From: Escherichia coli | GTDB taxonomy: Bacteria > Pseudomonadota > Gammaproteobacteria > Enterobacterales > Enterobacteriaceae | Reading direction: 5' to 3' (one strand) | Length of the DNA stretch: 64,000 nucleotides | Assembly: GCF_030013595.1 (NCBI RefSeq) | Contig: NZ_CP122768.1 | Shown here: positions 8,384-53,426 of the stretch, piece after piece | Position numbering within the stretch: position 1 is the stretch's first letter | How the letters are laid out: each line of letters opens with the position of its first letter | Notes under the pieces: model-generated | What the model saw: the letters and a program-made list of their open reading frames with translations, nothing else | What the model was told of the DNA's origin: nothing | Databases searched by the model: none | Program-made: the position numbers and the translations under genes

Positions 8384-9061
8384 TTAGTGACGAGCGCGCA
8401 CCAGCTGATACTTACGTGTCAGATACTCCACCGGTACGCTCCAGATGTGCACCAGACGTGAGAACGGGAACAGCAAGAATAACGTCATCCCCAGCACCAG
8501 GTGCAGACGGAAGATAAACGCCACACCATCAAGGTGTTGAGAAGCGCCACCGTGGAAGGTCACTACCGACTGCGCCCAGCCAACCAGTTTCATCATCTCG
8601 CTACCGTCCATATGCTGGGCGGAGAACGGAATGGTCAGCAAGCCCAGAGCGCACTGGATAACCAGCAGAGACAGGATCAGGATATCCGCTCCGGTAGTCG
8701 TTGCACGCACGCGTGGGCTGAACAGACGACGTTTCAGCAACAGCACGCCGCCAATCAGACACAGCACGCCGCTGGCACCACCAGCAAACATCGCCATTTT
8801 CTGTTTCACTTCAATCGGCAGCCAGGCTTCATACATCCAGTGCGGCGTCAGCATACCGAAGAAGTGACCAACAAAAATCCCCAGAATACCGATATGGAAC
8901 AGGTTCGACGCCAGGTTCATCCCTTTGCGATCCAGCATCTGGCTGGACGCCGCGCGCCAGGTGTACTGCCCGTAGTCATAACGCAGCCAGCTACCAATCA
9001 GGAAGACCGCCCCGGCTATGTACGGGTAGATATCAAAGAAGAACATATTCAGGAATTGCAT
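8384..9061 (-). CDS. narI: Respiratory nitrate reductase gamma subunit (cytochrome b)
   Basis: 225 aa polytopic membrane ORF, last gene of narGHJI. Confidence 0.96.
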
Positions 9062-9771
9062 TAGTGCTGTCCTCCGGTGGTGATATTCAGATATTGCGGC
9101 GCGACGGCACCAGCAAAGCGACGCTGATGAGCAGTGATTGCTGAATCACCGCAGCCTTTGTCAGCAAAGAATTTAACCTGCTCTTCTTCCCAGACAGCAT
9201 CCAGCGCCTGCGGCGTATCGTCGCGCGCTTCGTCGGCAATTTTTTCCGCCACTTTGTCGCTGTCGATTGCGGTATTCGCCAGTTTCAGCAGCAGATCAAA
9301 CAGCACGGCATAACGGCTTTCACGCTGTTGCAGACGCGCACTCAGCAATGCCAGAATCGGCGCAATATCTATCAAACCCTCCACGGCTTCGCTTTGCGGC
9401 AGCTGCGCCAGGTACTCCAGATACAGCGGCAGATGGTCGGGCAATTCGCGGCTGTTTAACTGCAAACCGTGCTGCTCATACTGCGCCAGCAGGTCTACCA
9501 TCGCCTGACCGCGGTCGCGGGATTCCCCGTGAACGTGTTCAAACAGCAACAGCGACGTGGCGCGACCACGATCGAACAGTTCGCTGTACTGCGCCTGGGC
9601 ATCGAGCGGATCCATCGTCGTTAAATCGCGCAGGAAAATGCCCAGCGCATGGGCATCTTCTTTCGACAGATTTTTCGACGCAGCAATTGCCTCAAACATC
9701 TCTTGTTGATGCTGCCATAAGGCAGCATCCGGATATTCAAGGAGACGCGATACAATCACGAGTTCGATCAT
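9061..9771 (-). CDS. narJ: Nitrate reductase delta subunit / molybdenum cofactor assembly chaperone
   Basis: 236 aa ORF; start overlaps narH stop and stop overlaps narI start. Confidence 0.96.
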
Positions 9772-11306
9772 GGGTGCGGCTCCGTTTTGCTGGTTACGTC
9801 GATGGCATCGATACGGCGGCTGTTGAACAGATTGAATTTGGTATCTGAACCGTGGCAGCCATCACCAAAGGTAAAGCCGCAGCCATTTTTCTCCGGGAAG
9901 GCTTCCCGCGCCAGTTCACGATGACTGCTCGGCACCACAAAGCGATCTTCGTAGTTAGCAATCGCCAGATAACGGTACATCTCCTGTGCCTGGGCTTCGG
10001 TCAGACCGACCTCTTCCAGCGCACGGGTATCGCCTTTACCGTCAACGGTTTCAGCACGTTTGTAATGACGCATCGCCAGCATACGTTTCAGCGCGCGCAG
10101 TACTGGTTTGGTATCACCGGCGGTCAGCAGATTCGCCAGATACTGTACCGGAATACGCAGACTTTCGACGTCTGGCAGAATGCCGTTGCTGCCCAGTTCA
10201 CCCGCATCTGCCGCAGACTGAATCGGCGACAGAGGCGGCACGTACCAGACCATCGGCAGTGTGCGATATTCCGGATGCAGCGGCAGCGCCAGTTTCCATT
10301 CCATCGCCATTTTATAAACCGGCGACTGCTGTGCGGCTTCAATAACGCTCAGCGGAATACCGTCTTTAATTGCCTGCTCGATGACTTTCGGATCGTTCGG
10401 ATCGAGGAACACCTCCAGCTGACGCTGGTAGAGATCTTTCTCGTTCTCGGTGCTGGCTGCACGTTCAATGGCGTCCGCATCGTACAGCAGCACGCCGAGA
10501 TAACGGATACGACCGACACAGGTTTCAGAGCACACCGTCGGCTGACCCGCTTCAATACGCGGATAGCAGAAGATGCACTTCTCAGACTTACCGCTCTTCC
10601 AGTTGAAGTAGATTTTTTTGTACGGGCATCCGGTGATGCACATACGCCAGCCACGGCATTTATCCTGGTCGATCAGGACGATGCCATCTTCTTCACGCTT
10701 GTAAATCGCACCGCTCGGGCAGGTCGCCACACATGCCGGGTTCAGGCAGTGTTCGCACAGGCGCGGCAAATACATCATGAAGGTGTTTTCGAACTGGCTA
10801 TACATCGCCTTCTGGATGTTGTCGAAGTTCTTGTCTTTCGCCAGCTTGTCAAACTCACCGCCCAGGTCATCTTCCCAGTTCGGCCCTTTTTCGATTTTCG
10901 CCATACGTTCGCCGGTAATCAGCGAACGCGGACGGGCAATCGGCTGCGATTTGCTGCCTTCCGGCGCGGTATGCAGGTTCTGATAATCAAAATCGAACGG
11001 CTCGTAATAATCGTCGATACCCGGCAGATGCGGGTTAGCAAAGATTTTACCCAGCAGCATGGCGCGGTTACCCATGCGCGGCTGCAGTTTGCCGTTGATT
11101 TTACGGATCCAGCCGCCTTTGTATTTTTCCTGGTTTTCCCAGTCAGTCGGGAAGCCCTGGCCCGGCTTGGTTTCCACGTTGTTGAACCACGCGTATTCCA
11201 CGCCTTCGCGGCTGGTCCAGACGTTTTTACAGGTAACTGAACAGGTGTGGCAGCCGATGCACTTATCGAGATTCAGCACCATGCCGACTTGTGAACGAAT
11301 TTTCAT
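9768..11306 (-). CDS. narH: Respiratory nitrate reductase beta subunit (Fe-S)
   Basis: 512 aa ORF with multiple ferredoxin-type Cys clusters (CIGCHTCSVTC, CEHCLNPACVATCP, CRGWRMCITGCPYKK). Confidence 0.97.
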   Translation of the reverse strand: MKIRSQVGMVLNLDKCIGCHTCSVTCKNVWTSREGVEYAWFNNVETKPGQGFPTDWENQEKYKGGWIRKINGKLQPRMGNRAMLLGKIFANPHLPGIDDYYEPFDFDYQNLHTAPEGSKSQPIARPRSLITGERMAKIEKGPNWEDDLGGEFDKLAKDKNFDNIQKAMYSQFENTFMMYLPRLCEHCLNPACVATCPSGAIYKREEDGIVLIDQDKCRGWRMCITGCPYKKIYFNWKSGKSEKCIFCYPRIEAGQPTVCSETCVGRIRYLGVLLYDADAIERAASTENEKDLYQRQLEVFLDPNDPKVIEQAIKDGIPLSVIEAAQQSPVYKMAMEWKLALPLHPEYRTLPMVWYVPPLSPIQSAADAGELGSNGILPDVESLRIPVQYLANLLTAGDTKPVLRALKRMLAMRHYKRAETVDGKGDTRALEEVGLTEAQAQEMYRYLAIANYEDRFVVPSSHRELAREAFPEKNGCGFTFGDGCHGSDTKFNLFNSRRIDAIDVTSKTEPHP

Positions 11307-14300
11307 TTTACGCTCTCCTGTACCTGGTCATTGCCTTCGCCATCTAACCAGTCAATGTTCTTCATCTTACGCACTACAACAAACTCATCGCGGTTAGAAC
11401 CTACGGTGCCGTAGTAGTTAAAGCCGTATGCCAGATGGGCATAGCCGCCGATCATATGCGTCGGTTTCGGCGTGATACGGGTGACCGAGTTATGGATACC
11501 ACCACGCTGTTGGGTAATTTCCGAACCAGGCAGGTTAACGATACGTTCCTGCGCGTGGTACATCATGGTCATCCCTGCCGGAACACGCTGGCTGACAACC
11601 GCACGGGCAGTCAGAGCACCGTTGCGGTTGAAGACTTCAATCCAGTCGTTATCGGCGATACCCAGCTCTTTGGCATCGGCTTCACTCAGCCAGACCACCG
11701 GACCACCGCGACCTAAAGTCAGCATCAGCAGGTTGTCGCTGTAGGTGGAGTGGATACCCCACTTCTGGTGCGGCGTCAGGAAGTTGAGCGCTTTTTCCGG
11801 GTTGCCGTTGGATTTCTGGCCTATCACTTCTTTCACCGAACGGGTGTCGATCGGCGGACGGTAAACCAGCAAGCTTTCACCGAAATCACGCATCCATTGG
11901 TGATCCTGATACAGCTGCTGACGGCCAGAGAGCGTACGCCACGGGATCAGCTCGTGAACGTTGGTGTAACCGGCGTTGTAAGAAACGTGTTCATCTTCAA
12001 GGCCAGACCAGGTCGGGCTGGAGATGATTTTGCGCGGCTGTGCCTGAATATCGCGGAAGCGAATCTTCTCGTCTTCTTTATTCAGCGCCAGATGCGTATG
12101 GTCACGACCGGTAAACTCGCTCAGGGCAGCCCAGGCTTTCACGGCTACCTGACCGTTGGTTTCCGGTGCCAGCGTCAGGATCATCTCTGCCGCATCAATT
12201 GCGGTATTGAGCATCGGCTGACCTTTTGCCGGACCTTCCGCTTTGGTGTAGTTGAGCTTACGCAGCAGATCCATCTCGCTCTGGGTGTTCCAGGCAATCC
12301 CTTTACCGCCGTTACCGATTTTCTCCATCAGCGGGCCGATAGAGGTAAAGCGTTCGTAAGTTGCCGGATAATCGCGCTCTACGACCATAATGTGCGGTGC
12401 AGTTTTACCTGGGATCAGGTCGCATTCGCCTTTTTTCCAGTCTTTCACATCCAGCGGCTGCGCCAGTTCAGCGGCAGAGTCGTGCTGGATAGGCAGCGTG
12501 ACGATGTCAGTTTCTTTACCCAGATGACCAACGCACACTTCGGAGAATTTCTTCGCGATGGCTTTGTAGATTTCCCAGTCGCTTTTCGCTTCCCAGGCCG
12601 GATCGACCGCCGCAGACAGCGGGTGAATAAACGGATGCATATCCGAAGTATTCATGTCGTCTTTTTCGTACCAGGTCGCCGTCGGCAAAATGATGTCGGA
12701 ATAGAGACAGGTGCTCGACAGACGGAAGTCCAGCGTCACCACCAGATCCAGCTTGCCTTCCAGACCGTTGTCCTGCCAGTCCACTTCTTCCGGCTTCACG
12801 CCGCCCTGCTGACCCAGGTCTTTACCCTGGATACCGTGCTCCGTCCCCAGCAGGTACTTGAGCATAAACTCATGACCTTTACCGGAAGAACCGAGCAGGT
12901 TAGAGCGCCAGATGAACAGGTTACGCGGGTGGTTTTTACCGTTTTCTGGTTGTTCTGCCGCAAAACGGATAGAACCCTCTTTCAGGGATTTCACGGTGTA
13001 ATCCACCGGATTCATGCCCGCTTTTTCCGCTTCGCGAGCGATAGTCAGCGGGTTAGTGCCTAACTGCGGCGCAGACGGCAGCCAGCCCATACGTTCTGCA
13101 CGGACGTTAAAGTCGATCAGATGTCCGGTATAACGGGATTTATCCGCCATCGGTGACAGCAACTCTTCCGCCGTGACGGTTTCATAACGCCACTGGCTGG
13201 AGTGGTTATAGAAATAAGAAGTGCTGTTCATGTGACGCGCCGGACGCTGCCAGTCAAGGGCAAACGCCAGCGGCTGCCAGCCGGTTTGCGGACGCAGTTT
13301 TTCCTGACCTACATAGTGCGCCCAGCCGCCCCCGCTCTGACCGACACAGCCGCAGAAAATCAGCATGTTGATCAGACCACGATAGTTCATATCGAGGTGA
13401 TACCAGTGGTTCAGCCCCGCACCGACGATAATCATTGAACGACCGTGGGTTTTATCAGCGTTATCGGCAAATTCACGGGCGATGCGAATAATCTGGCTGC
13501 GAGAAACGCCGGTAATCTGCTCGGCCCAGGCAGGGGTGTAAGCTTTCACATCGTCATAGCTGGTTGCACAATTAACGTCGTTCAGGCCACGTTCCAGACC
13601 GTAGTTTGCCAGCGTCAGATCATAAACGGTGGTCACCAGGGCGGTGCTGCCATCAGCCAGTTGCAGGCGTTTCACCGGCAGTTTGTGCAGCAGCACGTTT
13701 TCCAGTTCCACTTTGTTGAAGTGTTCAGTACCGTCGCCACCAAAGTACGGGAAGCCAACCTCAGCGATCTCATCCTGGCTACCCAGCAGGCTTAGTTGCA
13801 GCTCGGTTTCTTCGCCAGTTTTGCCGTCGCGCTGTTCAAGATTCCATTTGCCCTTCTCGCCCCAGCGGAAGCCGATAGAACCGTTCGGCGCAACCATTTC
13901 GCCATTGGTATTAAAGGCGACAGTTTTCCATTCCGGATTGTTTTCCTGGCCCAGCGCATCCACCAGATCAGCAGCGCGCAGCATACGACCCGCAGCGTAG
14001 TAACCGTCGCGTTCTTCCAGCATCACCAGCATCGGCATGTCGGTGTAGCGACGCACATAGTCGGTGAAATACTGGCTTGGGTTGTCGAGGTGGAATTCAC
14101 GCAGCATTACGTGGCCCATCGCCAGCGCCATTGCCGCATCGGTGCCCTGTTTCGGTGCCAGCCACAGATCGCACAGTTTGGCGATTTCAGCGTAGTCTGG
14201 CGTGACGGCAACAGTTTTGGTGCCTTTGTAACGCACTTCAGTAAAGAAGTGAGCATCCGGGGTACGCGTCTGCGGCACGTTTGAACCCCAGGCGATGATG

Positions 14301-15046
14301 TAGCTGGAGTTGTACCAGTCAGCAGATTCCGGTACGTCAGTCTGCTCGCCCCAGGTTTGCGGAGACGCAGGAGGCAGGTCGCAGTACCAGTCGTAGAAGC
14401 TTAAGCAAGTACCGCCAAGCAGCGAGAGATAGCGCGCACCCGACGCGTAAGAAACCATCGACATTGCCGGAATTGGCGAGAAGCCAGCGACGCGGTCCGG
14501 GCCGTAGTTTTTGATGGTGTAAACGTTAGAGGCGGCGATCAGTTCGTTCACTTCCTGCCAGGAAGAACGAACAAAACCACCGCGTCCACGCGCCTGCTTA
14601 AAGCTTTTCGCTTTATCGGCGTCTTCAATGATAGAAGCCCATGCCTCAACCGGATCGCTATGCAGCGCCTTCGCTTCACGCCACATTTTCATCAGGCGTT
14701 TGCGCATCATTGGGTATTTCAGGCGGTTGGCGCTGTAAAGATACCAGGAGTAGCTGGCACCGCGCGGGCAGCCGCGAGGTTCATGGTTTGGCAGGTCCGG
14801 GCGAGTACGCGGATAGTCAGTCTGCTGGGTTTCCCAGGTCACCAGACCGTTTTTGACGTAGATTTTCCAGCTGCAGGAGCCGGTGCAGTTTACCCCGTGG
14901 GTAGAGCGGACGATTTTGTCATGCTGCCAACGCTGGCGATATCCATCCTCCCAGTCACGGTTGGTATTGAGAAGCTGGCCATGCCCATCGGCAAAGGTTT
15001 CACCCTTCTGTTTGAAGTAGCGAAACCGGTCCAGGAATTTACTCAT
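11303..15046 (-). CDS. narG: Respiratory nitrate reductase alpha subunit (molybdopterin)
   Basis: 1247 aa ORF; N-terminal Fe-S motif HGVNCTGSCSWKIYVKNG, molybdopterin oxidoreductase core; 4-nt overlap with narH. Confidence 0.97.
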   Translation of the reverse strand: MSKFLDRFRYFKQKGETFADGHGQLLNTNRDWEDGYRQRWQHDKIVRSTHGVNCTGSCSWKIYVKNGLVTWETQQTDYPRTRPDLPNHEPRGCPRGASYSWYLYSANRLKYPMMRKRLMKMWREAKALHSDPVEAWASIIEDADKAKSFKQARGRGGFVRSSWQEVNELIAASNVYTIKNYGPDRVAGFSPIPAMSMVSYASGARYLSLLGGTCLSFYDWYCDLPPASPQTWGEQTDVPESADWYNSSYIIAWGSNVPQTRTPDAHFFTEVRYKGTKTVAVTPDYAEIAKLCDLWLAPKQGTDAAMALAMGHVMLREFHLDNPSQYFTDYVRRYTDMPMLVMLEERDGYYAAGRMLRAADLVDALGQENNPEWKTVAFNTNGEMVAPNGSIGFRWGEKGKWNLEQRDGKTGEETELQLSLLGSQDEIAEVGFPYFGGDGTEHFNKVELENVLLHKLPVKRLQLADGSTALVTTVYDLTLANYGLERGLNDVNCATSYDDVKAYTPAWAEQITGVSRSQIIRIAREFADNADKTHGRSMIIVGAGLNHWYHLDMNYRGLINMLIFCGCVGQSGGGWAHYVGQEKLRPQTGWQPLAFALDWQRPARHMNSTSYFYNHSSQWRYETVTAEELLSPMADKSRYTGHLIDFNVRAERMGWLPSAPQLGTNPLTIAREAEKAGMNPVDYTVKSLKEGSIRFAAEQPENGKNHPRNLFIWRSNLLGSSGKGHEFMLKYLLGTEHGIQGKDLGQQGGVKPEEVDWQDNGLEGKLDLVVTLDFRLSSTCLYSDIILPTATWYEKDDMNTSDMHPFIHPLSAAVDPAWEAKSDWEIYKAIAKKFSEVCVGHLGKETDIVTLPIQHDSAAELAQPLDVKDWKKGECDLIPGKTAPHIMVVERDYPATYERFTSIGPLMEKIGNGGKGIAWNTQSEMDLLRKLNYTKAEGPAKGQPMLNTAIDAAEMILTLAPETNGQVAVKAWAALSEFTGRDHTHLALNKEDEKIRFRDIQAQPRKIISSPTWSGLEDEHVSYNAGYTNVHELIPWRTLSGRQQLYQDHQWMRDFGESLLVYRPPIDTRSVKEVIGQKSNGNPEKALNFLTPHQKWGIHSTYSDNLLMLTLGRGGPVVWLSEADAKELGIADNDWIEVFNRNGALTARAVVSQRVPAGMTMMYHAQERIVNLPGSEITQQRGGIHNSVTRITPKPTHMIGGYAHLAYGFNYYGTVGSNRDEFVVVRKMKNIDWLDGEGNDQVQESVK

Positions 15047-15137
15047 CGGTTTTCTCCTGTGGGAGCCTGTCGGCCCTCTGATAAATCGACATTGCTAATG
15101 TTTAAGGGCAAGGTAACGCTCTGAAACAGCGTGAGAA

Positions 15138-15151
15138 TTGATAACGATCAA
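15138..15151. promoter_or_regulatory. FNR binding site in narG promoter
   Basis: Perfect TTGATaacgATCAA palindrome about 92 bp upstream of narG ATG, consistent with a class II (-41.5) FNR site. Confidence 0.75.
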
Positions 15152-15188
15152 GAGTGATGGGGATGAAAAATAAAGTAAATTCCTAAGA

Positions 15189-15195
15189 TACCCCT
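15189..15195. promoter_or_regulatory. NarL heptamer (TACCCCT) upstream of narG
   Basis: Matches TACYYMT NarL consensus; further heptamer-like sequences (aggagta/taccca) near 15280-15310. Confidence 0.4.
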
Positions 15196-15440
15196 TTAGG
15201 ATAATTAACAGCCACCACATAACAGACTGTAAATTAAGACGTTTTATACCTGTAGTTATTTAAACTATTAAGATTTTTATGCAGATGGGTATTAAGGAGT
15301 ATTCCCCATGGGTAACATATTAATGGCTCTTAATGAAATCCGGCGAAATAAGCCACTCACACATAAGTATGTTGTAACTAAACGACAGATAAAAAAAAGC
15401 GCGACACCATGCCGCGCAAAGGATAATCAAATATTAAGAT

Positions 15441-16832
15441 TTATTTTTTAGAATGCCGACCATATACCGCCCAGGTAATCACTACGCAGGCGATATAGAA
15501 AATCAAAAATACTTTCATTGCGCCGACTGGCGAACCCGTTAATGCCAGCGAGCTACCGAACGCTTTCGGGATAAAGAAGCCACCAATCGCGCCAATCGCA
15601 GAGATGAAACCCAGCGCCGCCGCCGTGTCGGTTGCCGCTTCACGCATCGCACGTTCGTCAGAACCCCCTTCTGCTTTCACGCGATCCATTGTCAGTTTAC
15701 GGAAGATCACGGAAATCATCTGGAAAGTGGAACCACTACCCAGCCCAGCTGTCAGGAACAGCGCCAGGAAGACTGCGAAGAACGCCATGAAGCTTCCGCC
15801 CTGCCCGTCAGTCGGTAAGGTCAGGAACAGCAGGCCGCTGAAAATCGCCATCAGAATAAAGTTCACCAGCGTGACACGAGTTCCGCCCAGACGGTCAGAT
15901 AATGCACCACCTGCAGAACGCGCCAGCGCACCAATAAACGGCCCGAAGAAAGCGTATTGCAGAATCTGAACATCCGGGAACTGCGTTTTTGACAGCATCG
16001 CAAAGCCCGCGGAGAAGCCGATGAAGGAGCCGAAGGTTGCCAGATACAGCAGGCTCATAATCCACAGATGACCCCGTTTGAGTACCGGCAACTGCTCCTT
16101 GATGGAGGCTTTCGAGGTAGCAAGATCGTTCATGCCAAACCACGCCGCAATGGTGAAGATGGCAAGGAACGGCACCCATACCCAGGACGCATTCGCCAGA
16201 TACAGCTCACTCCCATCCGGCTGTTTGACACCCTGGCTACCAAATACTGCGAAAATCGACAGTGATACCACCAGCGGAGCAACCAACTGCATGACGCTGA
16301 CGCCCATGTTGCCCAGACCACCATTCAGACCCAGCGCGCCACCCTGCTTCTGTTTCGGAAAGAAGAAGCTGATGTTTGCCATACTGGAAGCGAAGTTCGC
16401 GCCAGCAAAGCCGCACAGCAGAGAGATGATGATGAAGACGCTATAAGGCGTGGAGGTATCCTGCACGGCAAAACCCAGCCAGACGCAAGGAATAATCAGA
16501 ATACCGGTGCTGAACGCCGTCCAGCGACGACCACCGAAGATAGGAACCATAAAGGAGTATGGAACACGTAATAACGCGCCAGAAACCGAAGGCAGCGCAG
16601 TCAACATAAATAGCTGATCTGTCGTAAAATTAAAACCAACTTTTGGTAAGTTCACCGCAACAGCGCTGAACAACATCCATACGCAAAACGCCAGCAGCAG
16701 ACAGGGAACGGAAATCCACAGGTTGCGGCTGGCAATACGTTGACCGCGTTGTTGCCAGAACGCAGGATCTTCCGGTCGCCAATCTGTAATGACAGCTCCA
16801 GTAGCCCTTTCGGGGGCGGATGAGTGACTCAT
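15441..16832 (-). CDS. narK: Nitrate/nitrite transporter (MFS)
   Basis: Polytopic MFS ORF; start chosen at second Met (MSHSSAPERATG) giving 463 aa; ORF track begins two codons earlier at 16838. Confidence 0.92.
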   Translation of the reverse strand: MSHSSAPERATGAVITDWRPEDPAFWQQRGQRIASRNLWISVPCLLLAFCVWMLFSAVAVNLPKVGFNFTTDQLFMLTALPSVSGALLRVPYSFMVPIFGGRRWTAFSTGILIIPCVWLGFAVQDTSTPYSVFIIISLLCGFAGANFASSMANISFFFPKQKQGGALGLNGGLGNMGVSVMQLVAPLVVSLSIFAVFGSQGVKQPDGSELYLANASWVWVPFLAIFTIAAWFGMNDLATSKASIKEQLPVLKRGHLWIMSLLYLATFGSFIGFSAGFAMLSKTQFPDVQILQYAFFGPFIGALARSAGGALSDRLGGTRVTLVNFILMAIFSGLLFLTLPTDGQGGSFMAFFAVFLALFLTAGLGSGSTFQMISVIFRKLTMDRVKAEGGSDERAMREAATDTAAALGFISAIGAIGGFFIPKAFGSSLALTGSPVGAMKVFLIFYIACVVITWAVYGRHSKK

Positions 16833-16891
16833 AGACACCTCTGATACTCGTTTCGATGTCTGCCACCTTAGTGTCTGTAGCTAAAGGCAAT

Positions 16892-16905
16892 TTGATGTAA
16901 ATCAA
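16892..16905. promoter_or_regulatory. Promoter-proximal FNR site of narK
   Basis: TTGATgtaaATCAA perfect FNR palindrome about 60 bp upstream of narK start. Confidence 0.65.
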
Positions 16906-16929
16906 ACGATAAGATAACTTTATCTATCA

Positions 16930-16943
16930 TTGATATTTATCAT
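16930..16943. promoter_or_regulatory. Second (upstream) FNR-like site of narK
   Basis: TTGATatttATCAT, one mismatch to consensus, centre 38 bp from the proximal site (two helical turns apart, as expected for -41.5/-79.5). Confidence 0.5.
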
Positions 16944-17170
16944 TACCCATAGTGAGTACAGTGATTTCATAAAAATTATGAGATTTTTCACGGTGCTGTA
17001 GAATCCCTACCCTTACCGATGTAAAGCGACTAACCACACGGCAAATAAGGAGTAACTCTTTCAGGGTATGGGTATACTTCAGCCAATAGCCGAGAATACT
17101 GCCATTCCAGAATGTATCGTCACATTCATTAAGGTTATTGCTCATTTAAAGCCTGAAGGAAGAGGTTTAC

Positions 17171-18967
17171 ATGCTTAAACGTTGTCTCTCTCCGCTCACC
17201 CTGGTTAATCAGGTTGCGCTTATTGTGTTGCTTTCTACTGCTATTGGACTGGCAGGGATGGCAGTTTCTGGCTGGCTGGTGCAAGGCGTTCAGGGCAGCG
17301 CCCATGCGATCAACAAAGCGGGATCGCTGCGCATGCAAAGTTACCGTCTGTTGGCAGCAGTGCCATTAAGCGAGAAAGACAAGCCCTTAATTAAAGAAAT
17401 GGAACAAACGGCATTTAGCGCCGAGTTAACCCGAGCAGCAGAACGAGACGGACAACTGGCGCAATTACAGGGTTTACAAGATTACTGGCGTAATGAACTG
17501 ATCCCTGCGCTGATGCGTGCACAAAACCGCGAAACGGTGTCAGCGGATGTCAGCCAGTTTGTTGCCGGGCTTGATCAGCTGGTATCTGGTTTTGACCGCA
17601 CCACGGAAATGCGCATTGAGACAGTGGTGCTGGTCCATCGGGTAATGGCGGTATTTATGGCACTTTTACTGGTGTTCACTATTATCTGGTTGCGGGCGCG
17701 ACTGCTACAACCGTGGCGGCAATTGCTGGCAATGGCGAGTGCCGTCAGTCATCGCGATTTTACCCAACGCGCGAACATCAGCGGGCGCAACGAAATGGCG
17801 ATGCTTGGAACTGCGTTGAACAATATGTCTGCAGAACTGGCCGAAAGTTATGCCGTACTTGAGCAGCGGGTTCAGGAGAAAACCGCCGGGCTGGAGCATA
17901 AAAATCAGATCCTCTCTTTTTTATGGCAGGCCAACCGCCGATTGCATTCCCGCGCCCCGCTGTGTGAACGCCTGTCACCTGTACTCAACGGCTTACAGAA
18001 TTTGACCCTGCTACGTGATATTGAACTGCGGGTGTATGACACTGATGATGAAGAGAATCATCAGGAGTTTACCTGCCAGCCAGATATGACTTGTGATGAT
18101 AAAGGCTGCCAGCTCTGCCCGCGCGGCGTATTACCCGTTGGCGATCGCGGCACAACCCTGAAGTGGCGGCTGGCTGACTCTCATACGCAGTACGGTATTT
18201 TGCTGGCGACCCTGCCGCAGGGGCGTCATCTTAGCCATGATCAACAACAACTGGTGGATACCCTGGTTGAACAACTCACCGCCACGCTGGCGTTGGATCG
18301 CCATCAGGAACGTCAGCAACAGTTGATCGTGATGGAAGAGCGTGCCACCATTGCGCGCGAACTGCATGATTCTATTGCCCAATCTCTCTCTTGCATGAAG
18401 ATGCAGGTGAGTTGTTTACAGATGCAGGGCGATGCGCTGCCAGAAAGCAGCCGCGATCTGTTGAGTCAGATCCGTAACGAACTGAATGCATCCTGGGCGC
18501 AGTTGCGTGAATTGCTCACCACATTCCGTTTGCAGCTCACCGAGCCTGGATTACGTCCGGCGCTGGAGGCGAGTTGCGAAGAGTACAGCGCCAAATTTGG
18601 CTTCCCGGTGAAGCTGGATTATCAATTGCCGCCTCGTCTGGTGCCTTCGCATCAGGCAATCCACTTGTTGCAAATTGCCCGTGAGGCATTAAGTAACGCC
18701 CTCAAACATTCGCAAGCGAGTGAGGTCGTGGTGACGGTGGCGCAAAACGATAATCAGGTCAAACTGACCGTCCTGGATAACGGCTGCGGCGTGCCTGAAA
18801 ATGCCATCCGCAGCAATCACTACGGCATGATAATAATGCGCGACCGTGCGCAAAGTTTACGAGGCGATTGCCGCGTCCGCCGTCGTGAATCAGGTGGCAC
18901 CGAAGTGGTTGTCACCTTTATTCCCGAAAAAACTTTCACAGACGTCCAAGGAGATACCCATGAGTAA
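17171..18967 (+). CDS. narX: Nitrate/nitrite sensor histidine kinase
   Basis: 598 aa; two TM segments flanking periplasmic P-box, HAMP, H-box ([18 protein letters not shown]) and HATPase domain. Confidence 0.97.
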
Positions 18968-19610
18968 TCAGGAACCGGCTACTATCCTGCTGATCGACGA
19001 TCACCCGATGCTGCGAACTGGCGTAAAACAGCTTATCAGTATGGCACCAGATATCACCGTGGTTGGCGAAGCGAGTAATGGCGAACAGGGTATTGAACTG
19101 GCGGAATCTCTTGATCCCGATCTGATCCTGTTAGATCTCAATATGCCCGGCATGAATGGTCTGGAAACGCTGGATAAACTGCGCGAAAAGTCCCTCTCCG
19201 GGCGCATTGTGGTATTCAGCGTTTCTAACCATGAAGAAGATGTGGTCACCGCACTGAAACGCGGCGCGGATGGCTATCTGTTAAAAGATATGGAACCGGA
19301 AGATCTGCTGAAAGCATTGCATCAGGCTGCTGCTGGCGAAATGGTATTAAGCGAAGCATTAACGCCTGTTCTGGCCGCCAGCTTGCGCGCTAACCGTGCC
19401 ACTACTGAGCGCGATGTTAACCAGTTAACCCCACGCGAGCGCGATATTCTCAAGCTGATTGCCCAGGGTTTGCCGAACAAGATGATTGCCCGCCGCCTGG
19501 ATATCACCGAAAGCACAGTAAAAGTGCACGTCAAGCACATGCTGAAGAAAATGAAGCTCAAGTCTCGCGTGGAAGCAGCAGTATGGGTGCATCAGGAGCG
19601 CATTTTCTGA
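18960..19610 (+). CDS. narL: Nitrate/nitrite response regulator
   Basis: ATG at 18960 gives 216 aa ([21 protein letters not shown]...), receiver plus LuxR-type HTH; overlaps narX stop by 8 nt; ORF-track start 18846 is an upstream extension. Confidence 0.95.
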
Positions 19611-46954: not shown

Positions 46955-48652
46955 ATGAAATCCCCCGCAGCTTCTCGCCCGCTAAAAATGGCGTTAATTC
47001 CAGCCTGCATTTTTTTGTGTTTCGCTGCGCTATCGGTGCAGGCAGAAGAAACACCGGTAACGCCACAGCCGCCTGATATTTTATTAGGGCCGCTGTTTAA
47101 TGATGTGCAAAACGCCAAACTTTTTCCGGACCAAAAAACCTTTGCCGATGCCGTGCCGAACAGCGATCCGTTGATGATCCTTGCTGATTATCGGATGCAG
47201 CAAAACCAGAGCGGATTTGATCTGCGCCATTTCGTTAACGTCAATTTCACCCTGCCGAAAGAGGGCGAGAAATATGTTCCGCCAGAGGGGCAATCACTAC
47301 GCGAACATATTGACGGACTTTGGCCGGTATTAACGCGTTCTACCGAAAATACCGAAAAATGGGATTCTCTGTTACCGCTGCCGGAACCTTATGTCGTGCC
47401 GGGCGGACGTTTTCGCGAGGTATATTACTGGGACAGTTACTTCACCATGTTAGGGCTTGCCGAAAGCGGTCACTGGGATAAAGTCGCGGATATGGTAGCC
47501 AATTTTGCTCATGAAATAGACACTTACGGGCATATTCCCAACGGCAACCGCAGTTACTATTTAAGCCGCTCGCAACCGCCCTTCTTTGCCCTGATGGTAG
47601 AGTTACTGGTGCAGCATGAAGGCGATGCCGCGTTGAAGCAATACCTGCCGCAAATGCAAAAAGAATATGCTTACTGGATGGACGGTGTTGAAAACCTGCA
47701 AGCCGGACAACAGGAAAAACGCGTTGTAAAACTTCAGGATGGTACCCTTCTCAACCGCTACTGGGACGATCGCGATACGCCACGACCAGAGTCATGGGTG
47801 GAAGATATTGCCACCGCCAAAAGCAATCCGAATCGACCTGCCACTGAAATTTACCGCGACCTGCGCTCTGCCGCTGCGTCTGGCTGGGATTTCAGCTCGC
47901 GCTGGATGGACAATCCGCAGCAGTTAAATACCTTACGCACCACCAGCATCGTACCGGTCGATCTGAACAGCCTGATGTTTAAAATGGAAAAAATCCTCGC
48001 CCGCGCCAGCAAAGCTTCCGGAGATAACGCGATGGCAAACCAGTACGAAACGCTGGCGAATGCCCGTCAAAAAGGGATCGAAAAATACCTGTGGAACGAT
48101 CAACAAGGCTGGTATGCCGATTACGACCTGAAAAGTCATAAAGTGCGCAATCAGTTAACCGCTGCCGCCCTGTTCCCGCTGTACGTCAATGCGGCAGCGA
48201 AAGATCGCGCCAACAAAATGGCGACGGCGACGAAAACACATCTGCTGCAACCAGGCGGCCTGAACACCACGTCGGTGAAAAGTGGACAGCAATGGGATGC
48301 GCCAAATGGCTGGGCTCCCCTGCAATGGGTGGCGACAGAAGGGTTGCAAAACTACGGGCAGAACGAGGTGGCGATGGACATTAGCTGGCACTTCCTGACC
48401 AATGTTCAGCACACTTATGACCGGGAGAAGAAGCTGGTCGAGAAATATGATGTCAGCACCACCGGAACAGGGGGCGGCGGTGGCGAATATCCATTACAGG
48501 ATGGCTTTGGCTGGACCAATGGCGTGACGCTGAAAATGCTGGATTTGATCTGCCCGAAAGAGCAACCGTGTGACAATGTTCCGGCGACGCGTCCACTCAG
48601 TGAATCAACAACACAGCCGGTAAAACAAAAAGAGGCGGAACCTACGCCTTAA
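46955..48652 (+). CDS. treA: Periplasmic trehalase
   Basis: 565 aa from [30 protein letters not shown] (signal peptide); glycoside hydrolase family 37 motifs. Confidence 0.95.
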
Positions 48653-48666
48653 CTTTGCTGTATATC

Positions 48667-48710
48667 GAGCAATGCCATTATGTGCATAAAATTGGCATTG
48701 CTCTTTTTTC
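48667..48710 (+). terminator. Rho-independent terminator of treA
   Basis: gagcaatgcca...tggcattgctc stem with T6 run. Confidence 0.65.
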
Positions 48711-48982
48711 GCCACGAAATGCCCCCCATTCTACGGTCTATGCCTTTATTTTCTTTTATCAGAGAAGATTTTAATTTTATTTTATCAATTTGTTAATCAT
48801 TACACCTCTATTTATATTTTTCGCCACTCCGCCATTCTCCCTGACAATTTTCTTGTGGAACAAAGTGTTATTTAAGCAACAAGCAAATCATTCTGTCTCT
48901 TTAGACAAATTTTGACATCAAACATGATTTTTTTCGATATATATGTAAATATATAGCGGTTTTTATTATCAGGATATAACTT

Positions 48983-50005
48983 ATGTCACTAACCAGACGG
49001 AGGTTTACACAGATTCTTGCGTCGACATTGTTCCTGCATCATCTGCCGTCCTTTGCACAATCAGTCAAATTCTGGGCCTCACTGACGCTTCCCGAAGCCC
49101 AAAACATTACACGCATCGTCAGCGCAGGCGCGCCCGCCGATTTACTATTGCTGGCTGTCGCGCCAGAAAAAATGGTCGGTTTTTCCTCTTTTGATTTTGC
49201 CCGTCAGGCATTAATTCCATTGCCAGAGCACATTCGCCAGTTCCCCAGGCTGGGACGACTCGCCGGGCGCGCCAGCACACTCTCGCTGGAAGGGCTTATG
49301 GCGTTACATCCCGATTTGGTCGTTGATTGCGGCAATACGGATGAAACCTGGATCTCCCAGGCACGGCAGGTTAGCGAACAGACACAAATACCCTGGTTAT
49401 TGCTTAACGGGAAACTGGAACAATCAGCAGAACAGTTAACAACGCTTGGCAAAACGTTAGGCGAAGAGCACCGCACCGCAGAACAAGCCAATCTCGCCAG
49501 CCGCTTCGTTGGTGAAGCTCAGGCATTCGCCACCTCACCCGCCGCTAACCTCAGCTTTTATGCTGCGCGCGGTCCTCGAGGGCTGGAAACGGGCTTACAG
49601 GGTTCGTTGCATACCGAGGCGGCGGAATTATTAGGTTTGCACAACGTCGCGCAAATAGCCGATCGCCACGGTCTGACACAGGTTTCCATGGAAAATCTCC
49701 TGCGCTGGCAGCCGGATATTATTCTGGTTCAGGAGGCCGTTACTGCAGATTTTATTCGTCGTGATCCTCTCTGGCAGGGCGTGAAAGCGGTTGCGGAACA
49801 ACGCATCTTATTTTTAAGTGGCCTGCCCTTTGGCTGGCTGGATGCCCCGCCGGGAATCAACCGTCTTCTGGGATTACGCAGACTTCACGCCTGGCTGGAT
49901 CCCGCCATCAATCGCCAGTTTAAAAGTGACATGCAGCATTACGCCCAACTGTTCTGGCATTGCCCATTAAGTGACGCCGACTATCAAAAATTGGTGGCGA
50001 GCTAA
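48983..50005 (+). CDS. ABC transporter periplasmic substrate-binding protein (FecB/BtuF-like, class III) with Tat-type signal
   Basis: 340 aa; N-terminus MSLTRRRFTQILASTLFLHHLPSFAQ has twin-arginine motif; SD agga upstream; first gene of operon; stop overlaps next start (TAATG). Confidence 0.85.
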   Translation: MSLTRRRFTQILASTLFLHHLPSFAQSVKFWASLTLPEAQNITRIVSAGAPADLLLLAVAPEKMVGFSSFDFARQALIPLPEHIRQFPRLGRLAGRASTLSLEGLMALHPDLVVDCGNTDETWISQARQVSEQTQIPWLLLNGKLEQSAEQLTTLGKTLGEEHRTAEQANLASRFVGEAQAFATSPAANLSFYAARGPRGLETGLQGSLHTEAAELLGLHNVAQIADRHGLTQVSMENLLRWQPDIILVQEAVTADFIRRDPLWQGVKAVAEQRILFLSGLPFGWLDAPPGINRLLGLRRLHAWLDPAINRQFKSDMQHYAQLFWHCPLSDADYQKLVAS

Positions 50006-50985
50006 TGAGAACCGTAAACGGATGTATTTTGCTGCTGGCAGCTATCAGTATCACTTTTGCCGCCGTAAGTGGGGCTTATCATCTCGATATACAGCAACTG
50101 CTGGCGCTCATTCTGCGTCAAGAAAATGTTCCTGTGCAGGAACAAATTGTCTTCTGGCAAATCCGCGTGCCGCGTATTCTTGCTGCGCTGTTTCTGGGCG
50201 CGGCGCTGGCAGGGGCCGGAACCACCTATCAGGGAATGTTCCGTAATCCCTTAGTGTCACCGGATATTTTAGGCGTCTCCGCCGGTGCCGGACTTGGTGC
50301 CTGCGCGGCAATCCTGTGGGGATTATCCATTGTTTACATCCAGCTGTACGCATTTTGCGGCGGGCTGATGGTGGTCGCGGGCGTCTGGTTGATTACGCGT
50401 CGGGTGACCCGCCACGATCCGATCTTAACCCTGGTGCTGGTAGGCATTGCGTTAGGAACGTTGTGCGGAGCGGGGATATCGCTAATAAAAACGCTGGCCG
50501 ATCCTTACACCCAGTTACCGTCAATTACCTTCTGGTTGCTGGGGGGGCTGTCCACCGTGACCTTACGCGATCTCTGCTATGCTGCACCGATCATTCTCAT
50601 AGGCTCCTTGCCCCTGTTTTTTCTCCGCTGGCGCATGAATTTACTCACGCTTTCCGACGACGAAGCCCGTTCGCTGGGACTGAACGTGACACGTCTGCGC
50701 TTTGGATTAATTGTCTGCGCCACACTAATCACCGCCAGCACGGTAGCAATAGCGGGCATAATTGGTTGGGTCGGCCTGGTCGTTCCGCACATTGCCCGCT
50801 TGTTGACCGGTCATAACCATCAGCAGCTGTTGCCCATGGCAATGTGTACTGGCGCGATTCTGCTCCTGCTTACCGATACGCTGGCACGCAGCATTGGAAC
50901 AACAGAAATCCCACTTGGCATTCTGACCGCTTTTGTTGGTGCACCGTTTTTCCTGTTTTTGTTGTTACGCGGAGGTCGCCAGTGA
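50005..50985 (+). CDS. ABC transporter permease, FecCD family
   Basis: 326 aa polytopic protein with FecCD-type conserved region. Confidence 0.88.
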   Translation: MRTVNGCILLLAAISITFAAVSGAYHLDIQQLLALILRQENVPVQEQIVFWQIRVPRILAALFLGAALAGAGTTYQGMFRNPLVSPDILGVSAGAGLGACAAILWGLSIVYIQLYAFCGGLMVVAGVWLITRRVTRHDPILTLVLVGIALGTLCGAGISLIKTLADPYTQLPSITFWLLGGLSTVTLRDLCYAAPIILIGSLPLFFLRWRMNLLTLSDDEARSLGLNVTRLRFGLIVCATLITASTVAIAGIIGWVGLVVPHIARLLTGHNHQQLLPMAMCTGAILLLLTDTLARSIGTTEIPLGILTAFVGAPFFLFLLLRGGRQ

Positions 50986-51740
50986 CTTTGCTTGCCGTCC
51001 GTCATGCGTCTCTGGGTTACTCCCGCCATCCGGTGCTACGCGACGTGTCCTTCACCCTGTCGCAAGGAACAATTTGTTGTCTGTTAGGAGCCAATGGTTG
51101 CGGCAAAACCACACTCATGCGCTCCATTCTTGGCGTTATACCGTTATTAAAAGGCGAGATCTTACTGGATAGCCTCCCTGTGCAGACACTCAGCCATCGC
51201 CAGCGCGCGCAGGCTATTGCCTGGGTGCCGCAGGCGCACGACGGCATTTTTGCTTTTAGTGTGCTGGATATGGTGTTGATGGGCCTGGCCCCCACCATAG
51301 GCGCTTTTTCCGTTCCCGGTAAGCAAGAACGCCTGAAAGCAACGGAGCAACTGGAAAAGCTGGGCATTTTGCATCTGGCGACACGACGCTGGAATACGCT
51401 TAGCGGCGGTGAACGTCAGCTGGCTTTAATCGCTCGTGCACTCGTCCAGCAACCGCGCTTGTTATTACTGGATGAGCCTGCCTCCAGCCTCGATTTCGGT
51501 CATCAGATCCAACTACTGGACACGCTGGCGCAGCTCAAAAATAACGGCATGACAATGTTAATGTCGACTCATCATCCGCTCCATGCCAACGCCATTGCCG
51601 ACAGCATTATCCAGGTAGAGCCAGATGGACGAGTAACACAAGGCTTACCGACCGAACAGTTAACAACGAACAAACTGGCTGCCCTGTACCGGGTTTCTGC
51701 CGACCAGATTCACCATCACCTCTCTGCAATTAAGCACTAA
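50982..51740 (+). CDS. ABC transporter ATP-binding protein
   Basis: GTG 50982 overlapping permease stop (GTGA); Walker A GANGCGKTT, signature LSGGERQ, Walker B LLLLDEP; 252 aa. Confidence 0.85.
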   Translation: MTLLAVRHASLGYSRHPVLRDVSFTLSQGTICCLLGANGCGKTTLMRSILGVIPLLKGEILLDSLPVQTLSHRQRAQAIAWVPQAHDGIFAFSVLDMVLMGLAPTIGAFSVPGKQERLKATEQLEKLGILHLATRRWNTLSGGERQLALIARALVQQPRLLLLDEPASSLDFGHQIQLLDTLAQLKNNGMTMLMSTHHPLHANAIADSIIQVEPDGRVTQGLPTEQLTTNKLAALYRVSADQIHHHLSAIKH

Positions 51741-51749
51741 GGAAAAATC

Positions 51750-52550
51750 ATGCTCATTGACGATATTGATTTTGCAGACCTTTACCTTCAGCAACTCAGG
51801 CTGGCCCATCGCACAGAAAAAACGCCGGATCACTGGGATCAACGGGCGGAAAATTGCGCCTCGCCTACGGACAGCTACCTGCAACAACTGATCGCTAAAA
51901 TTGACCTACAAGGCGCTCAGACCTTATTCGATATGGGCTGCGGACCGGGTACCGTATCGCTGGCGCTGGCTGACAAACTCACGACGATTTATGGCGTTGA
52001 TTACAGTCAGGGGATGCTGAAGGTTGCCGCCCGTCGCGCCGCCGCGCTAAAGGCAGACAATGTCCACTGGATCCAGCGCGCCTGGGAAGAGGACTGGAGT
52101 GACCTGCCACGCTGCGATATTGCCGTGGCTTCCCGCTCCACTCTGGTGGCTGATATGCGCCAGGCAATGAGCAAACTGAATAATCAGGCACGGCTTCGCG
52201 TCTATACGACTCATCTGGTCAGCACCTCGTTCGTCTCTCCAGCCATTCAGCGGGCGGCTGGTCGGGAAGTGATCGAATTACCCAACTATATCTTTGCGCT
52301 CAACGTCCTGTATCAGATGGGAATTTATGCTCACGTTGATTTTATCCGTGGACAAAATTGCCAACAGGATAACAGCACCTGGGAACGTTTTGAGCAGAAC
52401 GTCAGCTGGAGTCTGGGCGCGCTTAACGACGATGAGCGTGAGCGGTTATATCGCTGGTATCAACAACAAGATGCTCGTGCCCTCGCCCCTGCCAGCCGCG
52501 ACTGGGCGCTCATCTGGTGGGATAGCGTACCGCAAGAGGCACTGCGATGA
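51750..52550 (+). CDS. SAM-dependent methyltransferase (class I)
   Basis: 266 aa; motif I LFDMGCGPGTVSLALA; SD aagga upstream; 4-nt overlap with next gene. Confidence 0.78.
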   Translation: MLIDDIDFADLYLQQLRLAHRTEKTPDHWDQRAENCASPTDSYLQQLIAKIDLQGAQTLFDMGCGPGTVSLALADKLTTIYGVDYSQGMLKVAARRAAALKADNVHWIQRAWEEDWSDLPRCDIAVASRSTLVADMRQAMSKLNNQARLRVYTTHLVSTSFVSPAIQRAAGREVIELPNYIFALNVLYQMGIYAHVDFIRGQNCQQDNSTWERFEQNVSWSLGALNDDERERLYRWYQQQDARALAPASRDWALIWWDSVPQEALR

Positions 52551-53401
52551 TTTTCCTTTCTCAGGCACAAATCGATGCGTTACTTCTGGAAGATATCCAG
52601 GGCGGTGACCTGACCACGCGAGCATTAAATATTGGACACCAGCATGGCTATATAGAGTTTTTTCACCGTCAGGGCGGCTGCGTCAGCGGAATTTCTGTCG
52701 CGTGTAAGATGTTAACTACGCTGGGATTAACTATTGATGACGCGGTCAGCGACGGTTCACAAGCGAACGCGGGTCAGCGGCTAATCCGTGCGCAGGGTAA
52801 TGCCGCAGCACTTCATCAGGGATGGAAGGCAGTCCAGAATGTGCTGGAGTGGAGTTGCGGTGTTTCTGATTATCTCGCTCAAATGCTGGCGTTACTTCGT
52901 GAACGTTACCCTGATGGCAATATCGCCTGCACCCGAAAAGCAATTCCGGGCACCCGCTTACTGGCCTCGCAGGCAATTCTGGCTGCCGGAGGACTGATTC
53001 ATCGTGCCGGATGTGCGGAAACCATATTATTGTTTGCCAACCACCGCCATTTTCTTCATGACAATCAGGACTGGTCAGGCGCAATCAATCAGTTACGTCG
53101 CCACGCACCCGAGAAGAAAATAGTTGTTGAAGCCGACACGCCGAAAGAGGCAATCGCCGCGTTACGCGCGCAACCAGACGTACTTCAGCTCGACAAATTT
53201 AATCCGCAACAGGCAACTGAAATTGCGCAAATAGCACCGTCGCTGGCTCCTCACTGCACGCTGGCTCTGACCGGCGGAATTAATCTGACAACACTCAAAA
53301 ATTACCTCGACTGCGGCATTCGCCTTTTTATTACCTCCGCGCCTTATTACGCGACACCAGCTGACATTAAAGTCAGTCTGCAACCCGCAGCCTCTATTTA
53401 A
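52547..53401 (+). CDS. ModD / nicotinate-nucleotide pyrophosphorylase (QPRTase)-fold protein
   Basis: 284 aa; resembles ModD/NadC family (family assignment from sequence impression, not searched). Confidence 0.7.
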   Translation: MIFLSQAQIDALLLEDIQGGDLTTRALNIGHQHGYIEFFHRQGGCVSGISVACKMLTTLGLTIDDAVSDGSQANAGQRLIRAQGNAAALHQGWKAVQNVLEWSCGVSDYLAQMLALLRERYPDGNIACTRKAIPGTRLLASQAILAAGGLIHRAGCAETILLFANHRHFLHDNQDWSGAINQLRRHAPEKKIVVEADTPKEAIAALRAQPDVLQLDKFNPQQATEIAQIAPSLAPHCTLALTGGINLTTLKNYLDCGIRLFITSAPYYATPADIKVSLQPAASI

Positions 53402-53426
53402 TTCTTTGTTAAACGGAATTTATTCT

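Follow-up and report, generated by a model that had tools for sequence, protein, structure and literature searches.

A six-gene operon of Escherichia coli with a ModE operator-like site: a probable TonB-dependent molybdenum acquisition system including ModD and a methyltransferase

A 64,000-nucleotide stretch of the chromosome of Escherichia coli (contig NZ_CP122768.1, assembly GCF_030013595.1), hereafter referred to as the window, hosts a six-gene operon which encodes an ATP-binding cassette (ABC) importer with its binding protein, a methyltransferase dependent on S-adenosylmethionine (SAM), a ModD protein and a TonB-dependent outer-membrane receptor. Judged by sequence, the operon is likely devoted to the acquisition of molybdenum (or tungsten): it would be repressed by ModE, would work in a TonB-dependent manner through a MolBC-like importer, and would be assisted in the cytoplasm by ModD and the methyltransferase, acting as an accessory pair. 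The features of the region are listed below, positions being those of the window.

48935-48958, no strand assigned: palindrome resembling a ModE operator, ending 24 nt 5' of the first start codon
48983-50005, plus strand: periplasmic substrate-binding protein of the Peripla_BP_2 class, with a twin-arginine signal (TRRRF)
50005-50985, plus strand: permease of a type II ABC importer, FecCD family, nearest to MolB
50982-51740, plus strand: ABC ATPase, with a GTG start overlapping the stop codon of the permease; the annotated counterpart in locus L001 is 759 bp long
51750-52550, plus strand: class I SAM-dependent methyltransferase ("yc73" family), 266 amino acids
52547-53401, plus strand: ModD, with the fold of quinolinate phosphoribosyltransferase (QPRTase), TIGR01334, 284 amino acids
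53427-55397, plus strand: TonB-dependent outer-membrane receptor "prrA", a pseudogene in this strain (amber codon at 53919-53921)

All six genes are tightly packed on the plus strand, the methyltransferase and ModD genes being the fourth and the fifth. A preliminary description, made from the sequence of the window, had noticed a class I methyltransferase with a GCGPG motif and a ModD-like protein, translationally coupled and set between the ABC ATPase and the receptor. This picture holds. The pair is flanked by the ATPase (50982-51740) and by the receptor gene (53427-55397), and the ATG of ModD (52547-52549) overlaps the TGA of the methyltransferase (52548-52550) in the ATGA found at 52547-52550 (...gcgATGAttt...). 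Both family names are supported by profile matches, to Pfam methyltransferase families in one case, to TIGR01334 (501 bits) and to the two QPRTase domains in the other.

The palindrome preceding the operon reads CGATATATA-TGTAAA-TATATAGCG. The E. coli ModE consensus has been quoted as ATCGNTATATA-N6-TATATANCGAT (PMC545781). The core CGNTATATA-N6-TATATANCG is matched at each of its 16 specified positions, and the outer flanks (ATCG and CGAT) contain two mismatches, a T for A at the outermost base on the left and a G for A at the third base on the right. No other sequence in the window matches the core, even allowing 2 mismatches, and the number of matches expected is 0.00. The proven modA operator of E. 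coli K-12 deviates from the same pattern at 2 positions, and ends 19 nt before the modA ATG, a distance comparable to the 24 nt separating the palindrome from the first start codon of the operon. This geometry argues for repression by ModE-molybdate, as observed at modABC. A perfect TTGACA hexamer lies just 5' of the ModE box, at 48912-48917. Additional modes of control were considered and rejected. The best upstream match to the 19-bp Fur consensus GATAATGATAATCATTATC is 13/19, and more than 20 other sites in the window are equal or better, which makes a Fur box unconvincing. Riboswitches sensing cobalamin or the molybdenum cofactor (Moco) were dismissed because no Rfam family, these two included, was matched at E up to 1 in the interval 47500-56500.

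Conservation of the operon was monitored by scanning one genome per species with an alignment of the methyltransferase. The 80 loci thus retrieved, annotated by using the proteins of the window, belong to Enterobacterales, Shewanella, Burkholderiales, Rhodocyclales, Pseudomonas and genera of the Halomonas group; orthologous clusters reside in Proteus, Providencia, Morganella, Citrobacter, Klebsiella-group genera and Shewanella. Of the 73 loci which could be evaluated, 54 have a ModE box, scored at 3 mismatches or fewer, at the cluster's 5' end, against 0.26 expected from the background density of the same loci, in which only 14 boxes were found elsewhere over 1.48 Mb. Half-sites persist across genera while spacers and flanks vary, the pattern to be expected for a functional site. 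In 21 of 49 loci another ModE box is found immediately ahead of the receptor gene; these loci belong to Proteus, Providencia, Morganella, some Shewanella and Serratia sp. H1w (for instance L003, box at 10897-10920, L036, box at 10871-10894, and L045-L062; the box is about 20 nt before the gene). In the Proteus, Providencia, Morganella and Shewanella loci having it, the receptor is probably a separate transcription unit controlled by molybdenum. E. coli carries the first box only, and none before the receptor.

Gene order could be assessed in 66 loci having enough flanking DNA. The arrangement found in E. coli (binding protein, permease, ATPase, methyltransferase, ModD, receptor) is the one observed in 30 of them. 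The same series lacking ModD occurs in 8 loci, variants in which the receptor comes first and is followed by binding protein, permease, ATPase and methyltransferase in 7, and the methyltransferase-ModD pair alone in 5; in 10 loci the methyltransferase is found without any other gene of the set. The methyltransferase follows the transporter ATPase in 48 of the 66 species-level loci, and on the basis of these counts is the gene most tightly bound to the transporter. The stand-alone methyltransferase-ModD pairs of Edwardsiella (L040, L041 and L044) are preceded by a ModE box of their own. According to the preliminary description, enzymes embedded in an import operon may process the imported compound, or make one. 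Either is possible, but the occurrence of stand-alone pairs under a ModE box indicates that the two enzymes can work away from the transporter, and this weakens the notion that they process a specific imported organic compound. The module is split in Edwardsiella, as E. tarda (L005) has a transporter-methyltransferase-receptor operon devoid of ModD and adjoining cbi genes; two methyltransferase paralogues are found in this genus, the second of them in the ModE-boxed pair.

The linkage to molybdenum genes is physical in other lineages. In Burkholderiales, Rhodocyclales and Pseudomonas the cluster is arranged as ModE box, receptor, DUF2478, binding protein, permease, ATPase and methyltransferase. 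In the Burkholderiales loci L064, L066, L067 and L075, modA-modB adjoin one end of this block, and the other end borders on modA-modB-ModD-modE in most of the four. Two-gene units made by DUF2478 and the methyltransferase occur in Castellaniella, Pseudomonas lopnurensis and Bordetella, and a ModE box lies ahead of them in the first two. DUF2478 (PF10649) distantly resembles nucleoside triphosphatases, and outside Enterobacterales it is regularly part of the cluster; examples are found at 9392-9976 in locus L083 and at 9312-9989 in L078, and between the receptor and binding-protein genes in L064, L066, L067, L075, L077, L080 and L081.

The importer points in the same direction. Among solved structures, the permease is best matched by MolB of Haemophilus influenzae (HI1471, 2nq2_A, 223 bits), followed by FhuB (175 bits), HmuU (168 bits) and BtuC (146 bits), and the best single-domain match of the ATPase in the Protein Data Bank (PDB) is MolC (HI1470, 2nq2_C, 126 bits). 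MolB and MolC are thus the top solved-structure matches of the two proteins, although a top rank in this set is not proof of orthology. The binding protein is more distant. Its best PDB sequence match is an uncharacterised Sulfurospirillum protein (4pag, 92 bits), and the best characterised one, MolA (HI1472), scores 34 bits. The AlphaFold2 model of the binding protein, with a mean predicted local distance difference test (pLDDT) value of 88, superimposes on 4pag with a template modelling (TM) score of 0.78, the best characterised fold match being MolA (3psa, TM 0.66); the siderophore and haem binders YiuA, BhuT and CeuE are among its structural matches as well. The N-terminus (48983-49060) starts with MSLTRRRFTQ, and R5 and R6 are at least 90% conserved in 26 orthologues; the conserved twin arginines suggest that the protein is probably exported in a folded state via the twin-arginine translocation (Tat) pathway. 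As for the receptor, the intact orthologue scores 126.7 bits against the siderophore-receptor model TIGR01783, below the cut-off of 223.5, and reaches no specific receptor cut-off in NCBIfam. Taken together, the ModE operator, the linkage to modABC and modE, and the likeness to MolBC-A indicate that the relevant biology is that of molybdenum, rather than generic or iron-siderophore import.

ModD spans the whole NCBIfam profile TIGR01334 (positions 1-277 of 277), scoring 501.4 bits against a cut-off of 178.85, and both Pfam domains QRPTase_N and QRPTase_C are recognized. By comparison, the score against the NadC model TIGR00078 is 135.7 bits, under the cut-off of 198.4. Alignment to NadC of Mycobacterium tuberculosis revealed that T129, R130, K131, H152, R153, E195 and D216 are kept. 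A catalytic lysine (K172 in M. tuberculosis numbering) is replaced by F163, and K94 is found at the R105 position, so that the full set of cationic residues binding quinolinate in NadC (R105, R139, R162, K172, K140 and H161) is not retained. The replacement is a family trait: phenylalanine takes the place of the catalytic lysine in 94 of 100 diverse ModD representatives, and K217 that of a NadC asparagine in 85 of 100, while E. coli NadC has the lysine. A score below cut-off and the loss of the catalytic lysine indicate that ModD is not a plain NadC paralogue, an identity which the preliminary description had envisaged in case all NadC catalytic residues were found in place and a nadC mutant was complemented. 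In other organisms ModD is fused to a ModC/WtpC-like ATPase within a modA-modB operon, and a natural ModD::NifQ fusion was found. NifQ is the molybdenum donor for the nitrogenase cofactor. Through its fusions to ModC and NifQ, ModD can be placed where molybdenum import ends, in the cytoplasm. A partial ModD joined to two TOBE/Mop domains was noticed as well, and may be a chimera. The entries for all these fusions are P0263 and P0268 (locus L094, 6001-7575), P0315 (locus L093) and P0288. In Geobacter sulfurreducens a modDABC operon with a ModE site has been described.

The methyltransferase is matched by the Pfam families Methyltransf_31, 25, 12 and 11 (E from 6e-11 to 6e-7). The glycine-rich SAM-binding motif I, DMGCGPG (D61-G67), and the acidic residue D84 after strand 2 of the Rossmann-like fold, corresponding to D65-G71 and D88 in the orthologue of 270 amino acids, are invariant in 42 orthologues. 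Residues outside the SAM site are invariant in the same set, namely F8, Y12, K24, W29, D30, Y47, W116, W120, R133, Y156, R176 and W256, and such an array of aromatic and charged residues suggests a defined small substrate. None of the characterised equivalogs (CpaM, UbiE, BioC, Tam, ArsM and others) was reached, CpaM coming nearest with 43.5 bits where 180 are required, and sequence matches in PDB are confined to the SAM-binding region. A link to corrinoids through the CpaM match was considered and dropped, as the score is far under the cut-off and involves the SAM-binding region only. The AlphaFold2 model (pLDDT 90) resembles class I folds at TM of about 0.55, including phosphoethanolamine N-, sugar O- and thiol S-methyltransferases; the fold search, meant to single out a specific class of substrates, retrieved at this level generic small-molecule methyltransferases only. 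The protein thus looks like a small-molecule enzyme. The preliminary description had left room for a well-characterised housekeeping enzyme, but no characterised enzyme is matched, the top results being CpaM (43 bits, cut-off 180) and folds at TM of about 0.55.

From gene anatomy, family assignments, the conserved operator, the mod linkage and the similarity to MolBC we infer the mode of regulation, the transported species and the role of the two enzymes as follows. When molybdate is plentiful, ModE-molybdate would bind the palindrome at 48935-48958, which would lie between the promoter region and the start codon, and keep the operon off. Molybdenum scarcity would allow expression. The receptor would then take a molybdenum species at the outer membrane at the expense of TonB energy, and the Tat-exported binding protein and the MolBC-like type II importer would bring it into the cytoplasm. 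Here ModD and the methyltransferase may act as a pair, their target being either the molybdenum species itself or some small molecule connected with the handling of molybdenum. The residues by which QPRTases bind anions and phosphoribosyl pyrophosphate (PRPP) are retained in ModD, which however carries phenylalanine for a catalytic lysine and for this reason would not make nicotinic acid mononucleotide (NaMN). Its pocket, rich in the cationic residues by which NadC binds carboxylates and phosphates, could plausibly bind molybdate, a phosphate analogue.

Several points weigh against this scenario. The transport components all come from families which mostly carry iron chelates, haem or B12, and the available literature labels the cluster as a putative iron uptake system. 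Free molybdate is small enough to pass through porins, which makes the need for a TonB-dependent receptor less than obvious. The binding protein bears just a weak similarity to MolA and is closer to 4pag, so that something other than free molybdate may be its ligand. A simple promoter scan identified no canonical promoter overlapping the ModE box, and repression, rather than activation, is inferred from geometry alone. The molybdenum imported may rather be in a bound form. In this case the system would act as a TonB-dependent molybdenum pirate: the methyltransferase would methylate the ligand on S or O, and together with ModD would free or activate the metal in the cytoplasm. The hypothesis is a tentative one, and on balance doubtful. 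Candidate cargoes are thiomolybdate, in the sulfidic gut or sediment, a molybdenum-catecholate or other chelate, and the pterin-dithiolene fragment of the molybdenum cofactor.

The presence of a receptor, which suits a chelate better than a free oxyanion, is also compatible with the hypothesis that the methyltransferase and ModD make a pyridine-type "molybdophore" from a quinolinate-like precursor, to be released and retaken, loaded with molybdenum, by the receptor and the ABC system. The stand-alone ModE-controlled methyltransferase-ModD pairs, the retention in ModD of residues binding PRPP and the heterocycle, and the similarity of the methyltransferase fold to that of natural-product methyltransferases fit this hypothesis. 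Two enzymes and no exporter would make a very thin pathway, however, and many clusters lack ModD (as the 8 loci mentioned above) or have DUF2478 instead; moreover, ModD also accompanies plain modABC and forms fusions with ModC and NifQ, contexts in which chelate uptake is not implied. The biosynthetic hypothesis is therefore unlikely. The sign of ModE control leaves room for a different scenario, in which ModE activates the operon and the product imported, a cofactor precursor or the substrate of a molybdoenzyme, is needed when molybdenum is available, not scavenged when it is scarce. E. coli ModE is annotated as a dual regulator. ModE activates moaABCDE, dmsABC and napF. The lack of a canonical promoter over the box in the simple scan would be in line with activation. 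Against it, the distance from the box to the start codon (24 nt) is much like that at the repressed modA operator (19 nt), the perfect TTGACA at 48912-48917 lies just 5' of it, the cluster sits beside modABC in other lineages, and permease and ATPase are nearest to MolB and MolC. We regard activation as quite unlikely.

The names given to the genes reflect a third view, that of a Fur-type iron or siderophore uptake system made by the prrA receptor and a fepC-like ATPase, whose enzymes would release iron from the siderophore, or recycle it. Family annotations (FecCD permease, Peripla_BP_2 binding protein, TonB-dependent receptor), the putative iron-uptake function assigned in the literature and the structural matches of the binding protein to YiuA, BhuT and CeuE are all in its favor. 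The conserved element upstream is nevertheless a ModE box and not a Fur box, for which the best candidate is the 13/19 match; the receptor scores 127 bits where the siderophore-receptor model requires 223.5; mod loci surround the cluster in beta-Proteobacteria; and ModD is tied to molybdenum everywhere else it occurs. All this makes iron a distinctly improbable cargo. It is still harder to envisage an importer of corrinoids or other tetrapyrroles, with the methyltransferase modifying the imported cofactor. The best NCBIfam match of the methyltransferase is to the corrinoid protein-associated CpaM, the permease matches BtuC models, and the E. tarda cluster adjoins cbi genes; yet the CpaM match covers the SAM-binding half only and reaches 43 of the 180 bits required, the permease resembles BtuC less than it does MolB, no cobalamin riboswitch was detected by Rfam (E up to 1, 47500-56500), and the ModE box and the mod linkage point elsewhere. 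Hardly any credence, finally, can be given to the idea that ModD is a second QPRTase serving NAD synthesis and that the methyltransferase is a housekeeping enzyme located there by chance. The fold and the retention of R130, K131, H152, R153, E195 and D216 would allow it, but the score against NadC (136 bits, cut-off 198), phenylalanine for the catalytic lysine in 94 of 100 ModD proteins, a gene order strictly conserved, with translational coupling, across bacterial orders, and a methyltransferase reaching no equivalog cut-off do not support such a hypothesis.

Among characterised systems, MolBC-A of H. influenzae (HI1470/HI1471/HI1472) shares with the operon a type II, BtuCD-like importer, a binding protein of the Peripla_BP_2 class and the vicinity of modD. 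In H. influenzae, modD (HI1473) adjoins molABC, with mod-like genes nearby (PMC3928620), and MolBC-A, which imports molybdate and tungstate, is presented in a 2020 review of molybdenum in pathogens as a molybdate importer of lower affinity. The E. coli operon differs in the addition of a TonB-dependent receptor and a SAM-dependent methyltransferase, and in a binding protein distant from MolA (34 bits). With ModE-controlled modABC(D) operons it has in common the type of operator, a similar distance to the first start codon (19 nt there, 24 nt here) and the accessory gene modD. The modABCD operon of Rhodobacter capsulatus, a ModE-controlled molybdate uptake operon, is of this kind. ModABC, in contrast, is a type I importer with a binding protein of the ModA family and no outer-membrane receptor, and the operon described here encodes an importer of the other ABC class. 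The Fur-regulated Fec, Fhu and Fep systems likewise combine a TonB-dependent receptor with a periplasmic binding protein and a type II importer. Some siderophore systems include a cytoplasmic enzyme which frees the metal, as Fes and FhuF. The operon differs from Fec, Fhu and Fep because the predicted regulator is ModE rather than Fur, and because it embeds a methyltransferase and a QPRTase-like protein in place of an esterase or reductase. NadC and ModD, lastly, have the same two-domain fold and most of the contacts with quinolinate and PRPP in common, and are set apart by Phe163, by Lys94 (for Arg105) and by Lys217 (for Asn).

The cluster and the names of its genes are not new. The operon is an accessory component of the E. 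coli genome, already named the "prrA-modD-yc73-fepC" cluster, and corresponds to ECs1693-ECs1699 of O157:H7 Sakai (OI#55, or O-island 55, S-loop 83), which the literature equates with a cluster of the uropathogenic strain CFT073. A literature search retrieved neither biochemical work on the operon nor a paper tying it to ModE, and the ModE operator, the mod linkage and the likeness to MolBC were not found in the literature on the cluster or in the 2020 review. A study of Shewanella regulons covering 16 genomes lists only modE and modABC under ModE. Four aspects appear to be novel, though older papers may have noticed them: molybdenum in place of iron as the proposed cargo, an operator conserved across species, the recognition of the methyltransferase as a core gene of the molybdenum regulon, and its pairing with ModD or DUF2478.

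Uptake of molybdenum in enterobacteria is thought to rely on ModABC, with sulfate transporters as a back-up, and no TonB-dependent step at the outer membrane is contemplated in the 2020 review. The literature places the same cluster in extraintestinal pathogenic strains. If the operon serves to scavenge molybdenum, a virulence-associated region listed as an iron uptake system would need to be reinterpreted, and the finding would bear on fitness in the gut and the urinary tract, where anaerobic respiration depends on molybdoenzymes. The function of ModD would also become approachable in a genetically easy organism, along with a conserved partner methyltransferase and, elsewhere, DUF2478. Should the doubtful hypothesis that bound molybdenum is pirated prove correct, the receptor would be the first outer-membrane molybdenum receptor of enterobacteria, and ModD would be given its first enzymatic role some thirty years after being named.

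In the window the operon lies in a chromosomal segment in which adhE, the nar genes and treA precede it, and ymgE, ycgR and emtA follow; in O157:H7 the same operon is found between treA and ymgE. Of 5426 complete E. coli genomes, 2139 (39%) contain at least 80% of it. The notion of a foreign island was considered and abandoned, since the GC content (52-55%) is close to that of the flanks, and signs of recent foreign origin are missing. The genes narGHJI, narK and narXL, encoding a molybdoenzyme and its regulators, map at about 8400-19600, roughly 30-40 kb upstream, a neighborhood which is probably coincidental.

Two alleles of the strain analysed deviate from the norm of the species. The methyltransferase, 270 amino acids long as a rule, has an in-frame deletion of 12 bp after 51844 which removes AEKM (codons 34-37 of the 270-amino-acid form) from an N-terminal helix, beside the invariant W29, D30 and R32. 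Among the ten best-matching records, only two closely related pig isolates share the deletion, and NRZ14408 and O157:H7 do not have it. The receptor gene is interrupted in frame by a TAG codon at 53919-53921, which is CAG (Gln166) in other strains, NRZ14408 and O157:H7 included, where the receptor is intact and 656 amino acids long. Readthrough by insertion of selenocysteine was discarded, as the codon is TAG and not TGA, and is CAG elsewhere, which denotes a nonsense mutation. The label "Plug domain-containing protein" was also dismissed as a sign of truncation, being just an alternative name of the intact 656-amino-acid receptor. The amber codon probably leaves the system of this strain non-functional at the outer-membrane step. 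The nearest genome, that of a pig isolate 99.9% identical (L091), shares the methyltransferase deletion and retains the CAG; an additional G is found near 53776, and the annotation records the receptor as frameshifted. This +1 frameshift lies about 140 nt upstream of the amber site. The receptor has therefore been lost twice, independently, in one lineage, which suggests that it is under relaxed or negative selection. Decay of the operon seems to be frequent across species. Frameshifted or split genes were noticed in Citrobacter koseri NCTC10786, in a Symbiopectobacterium and in some Providencia (L009, 7207-9991; L017, 10001-13616; L058 and L062).

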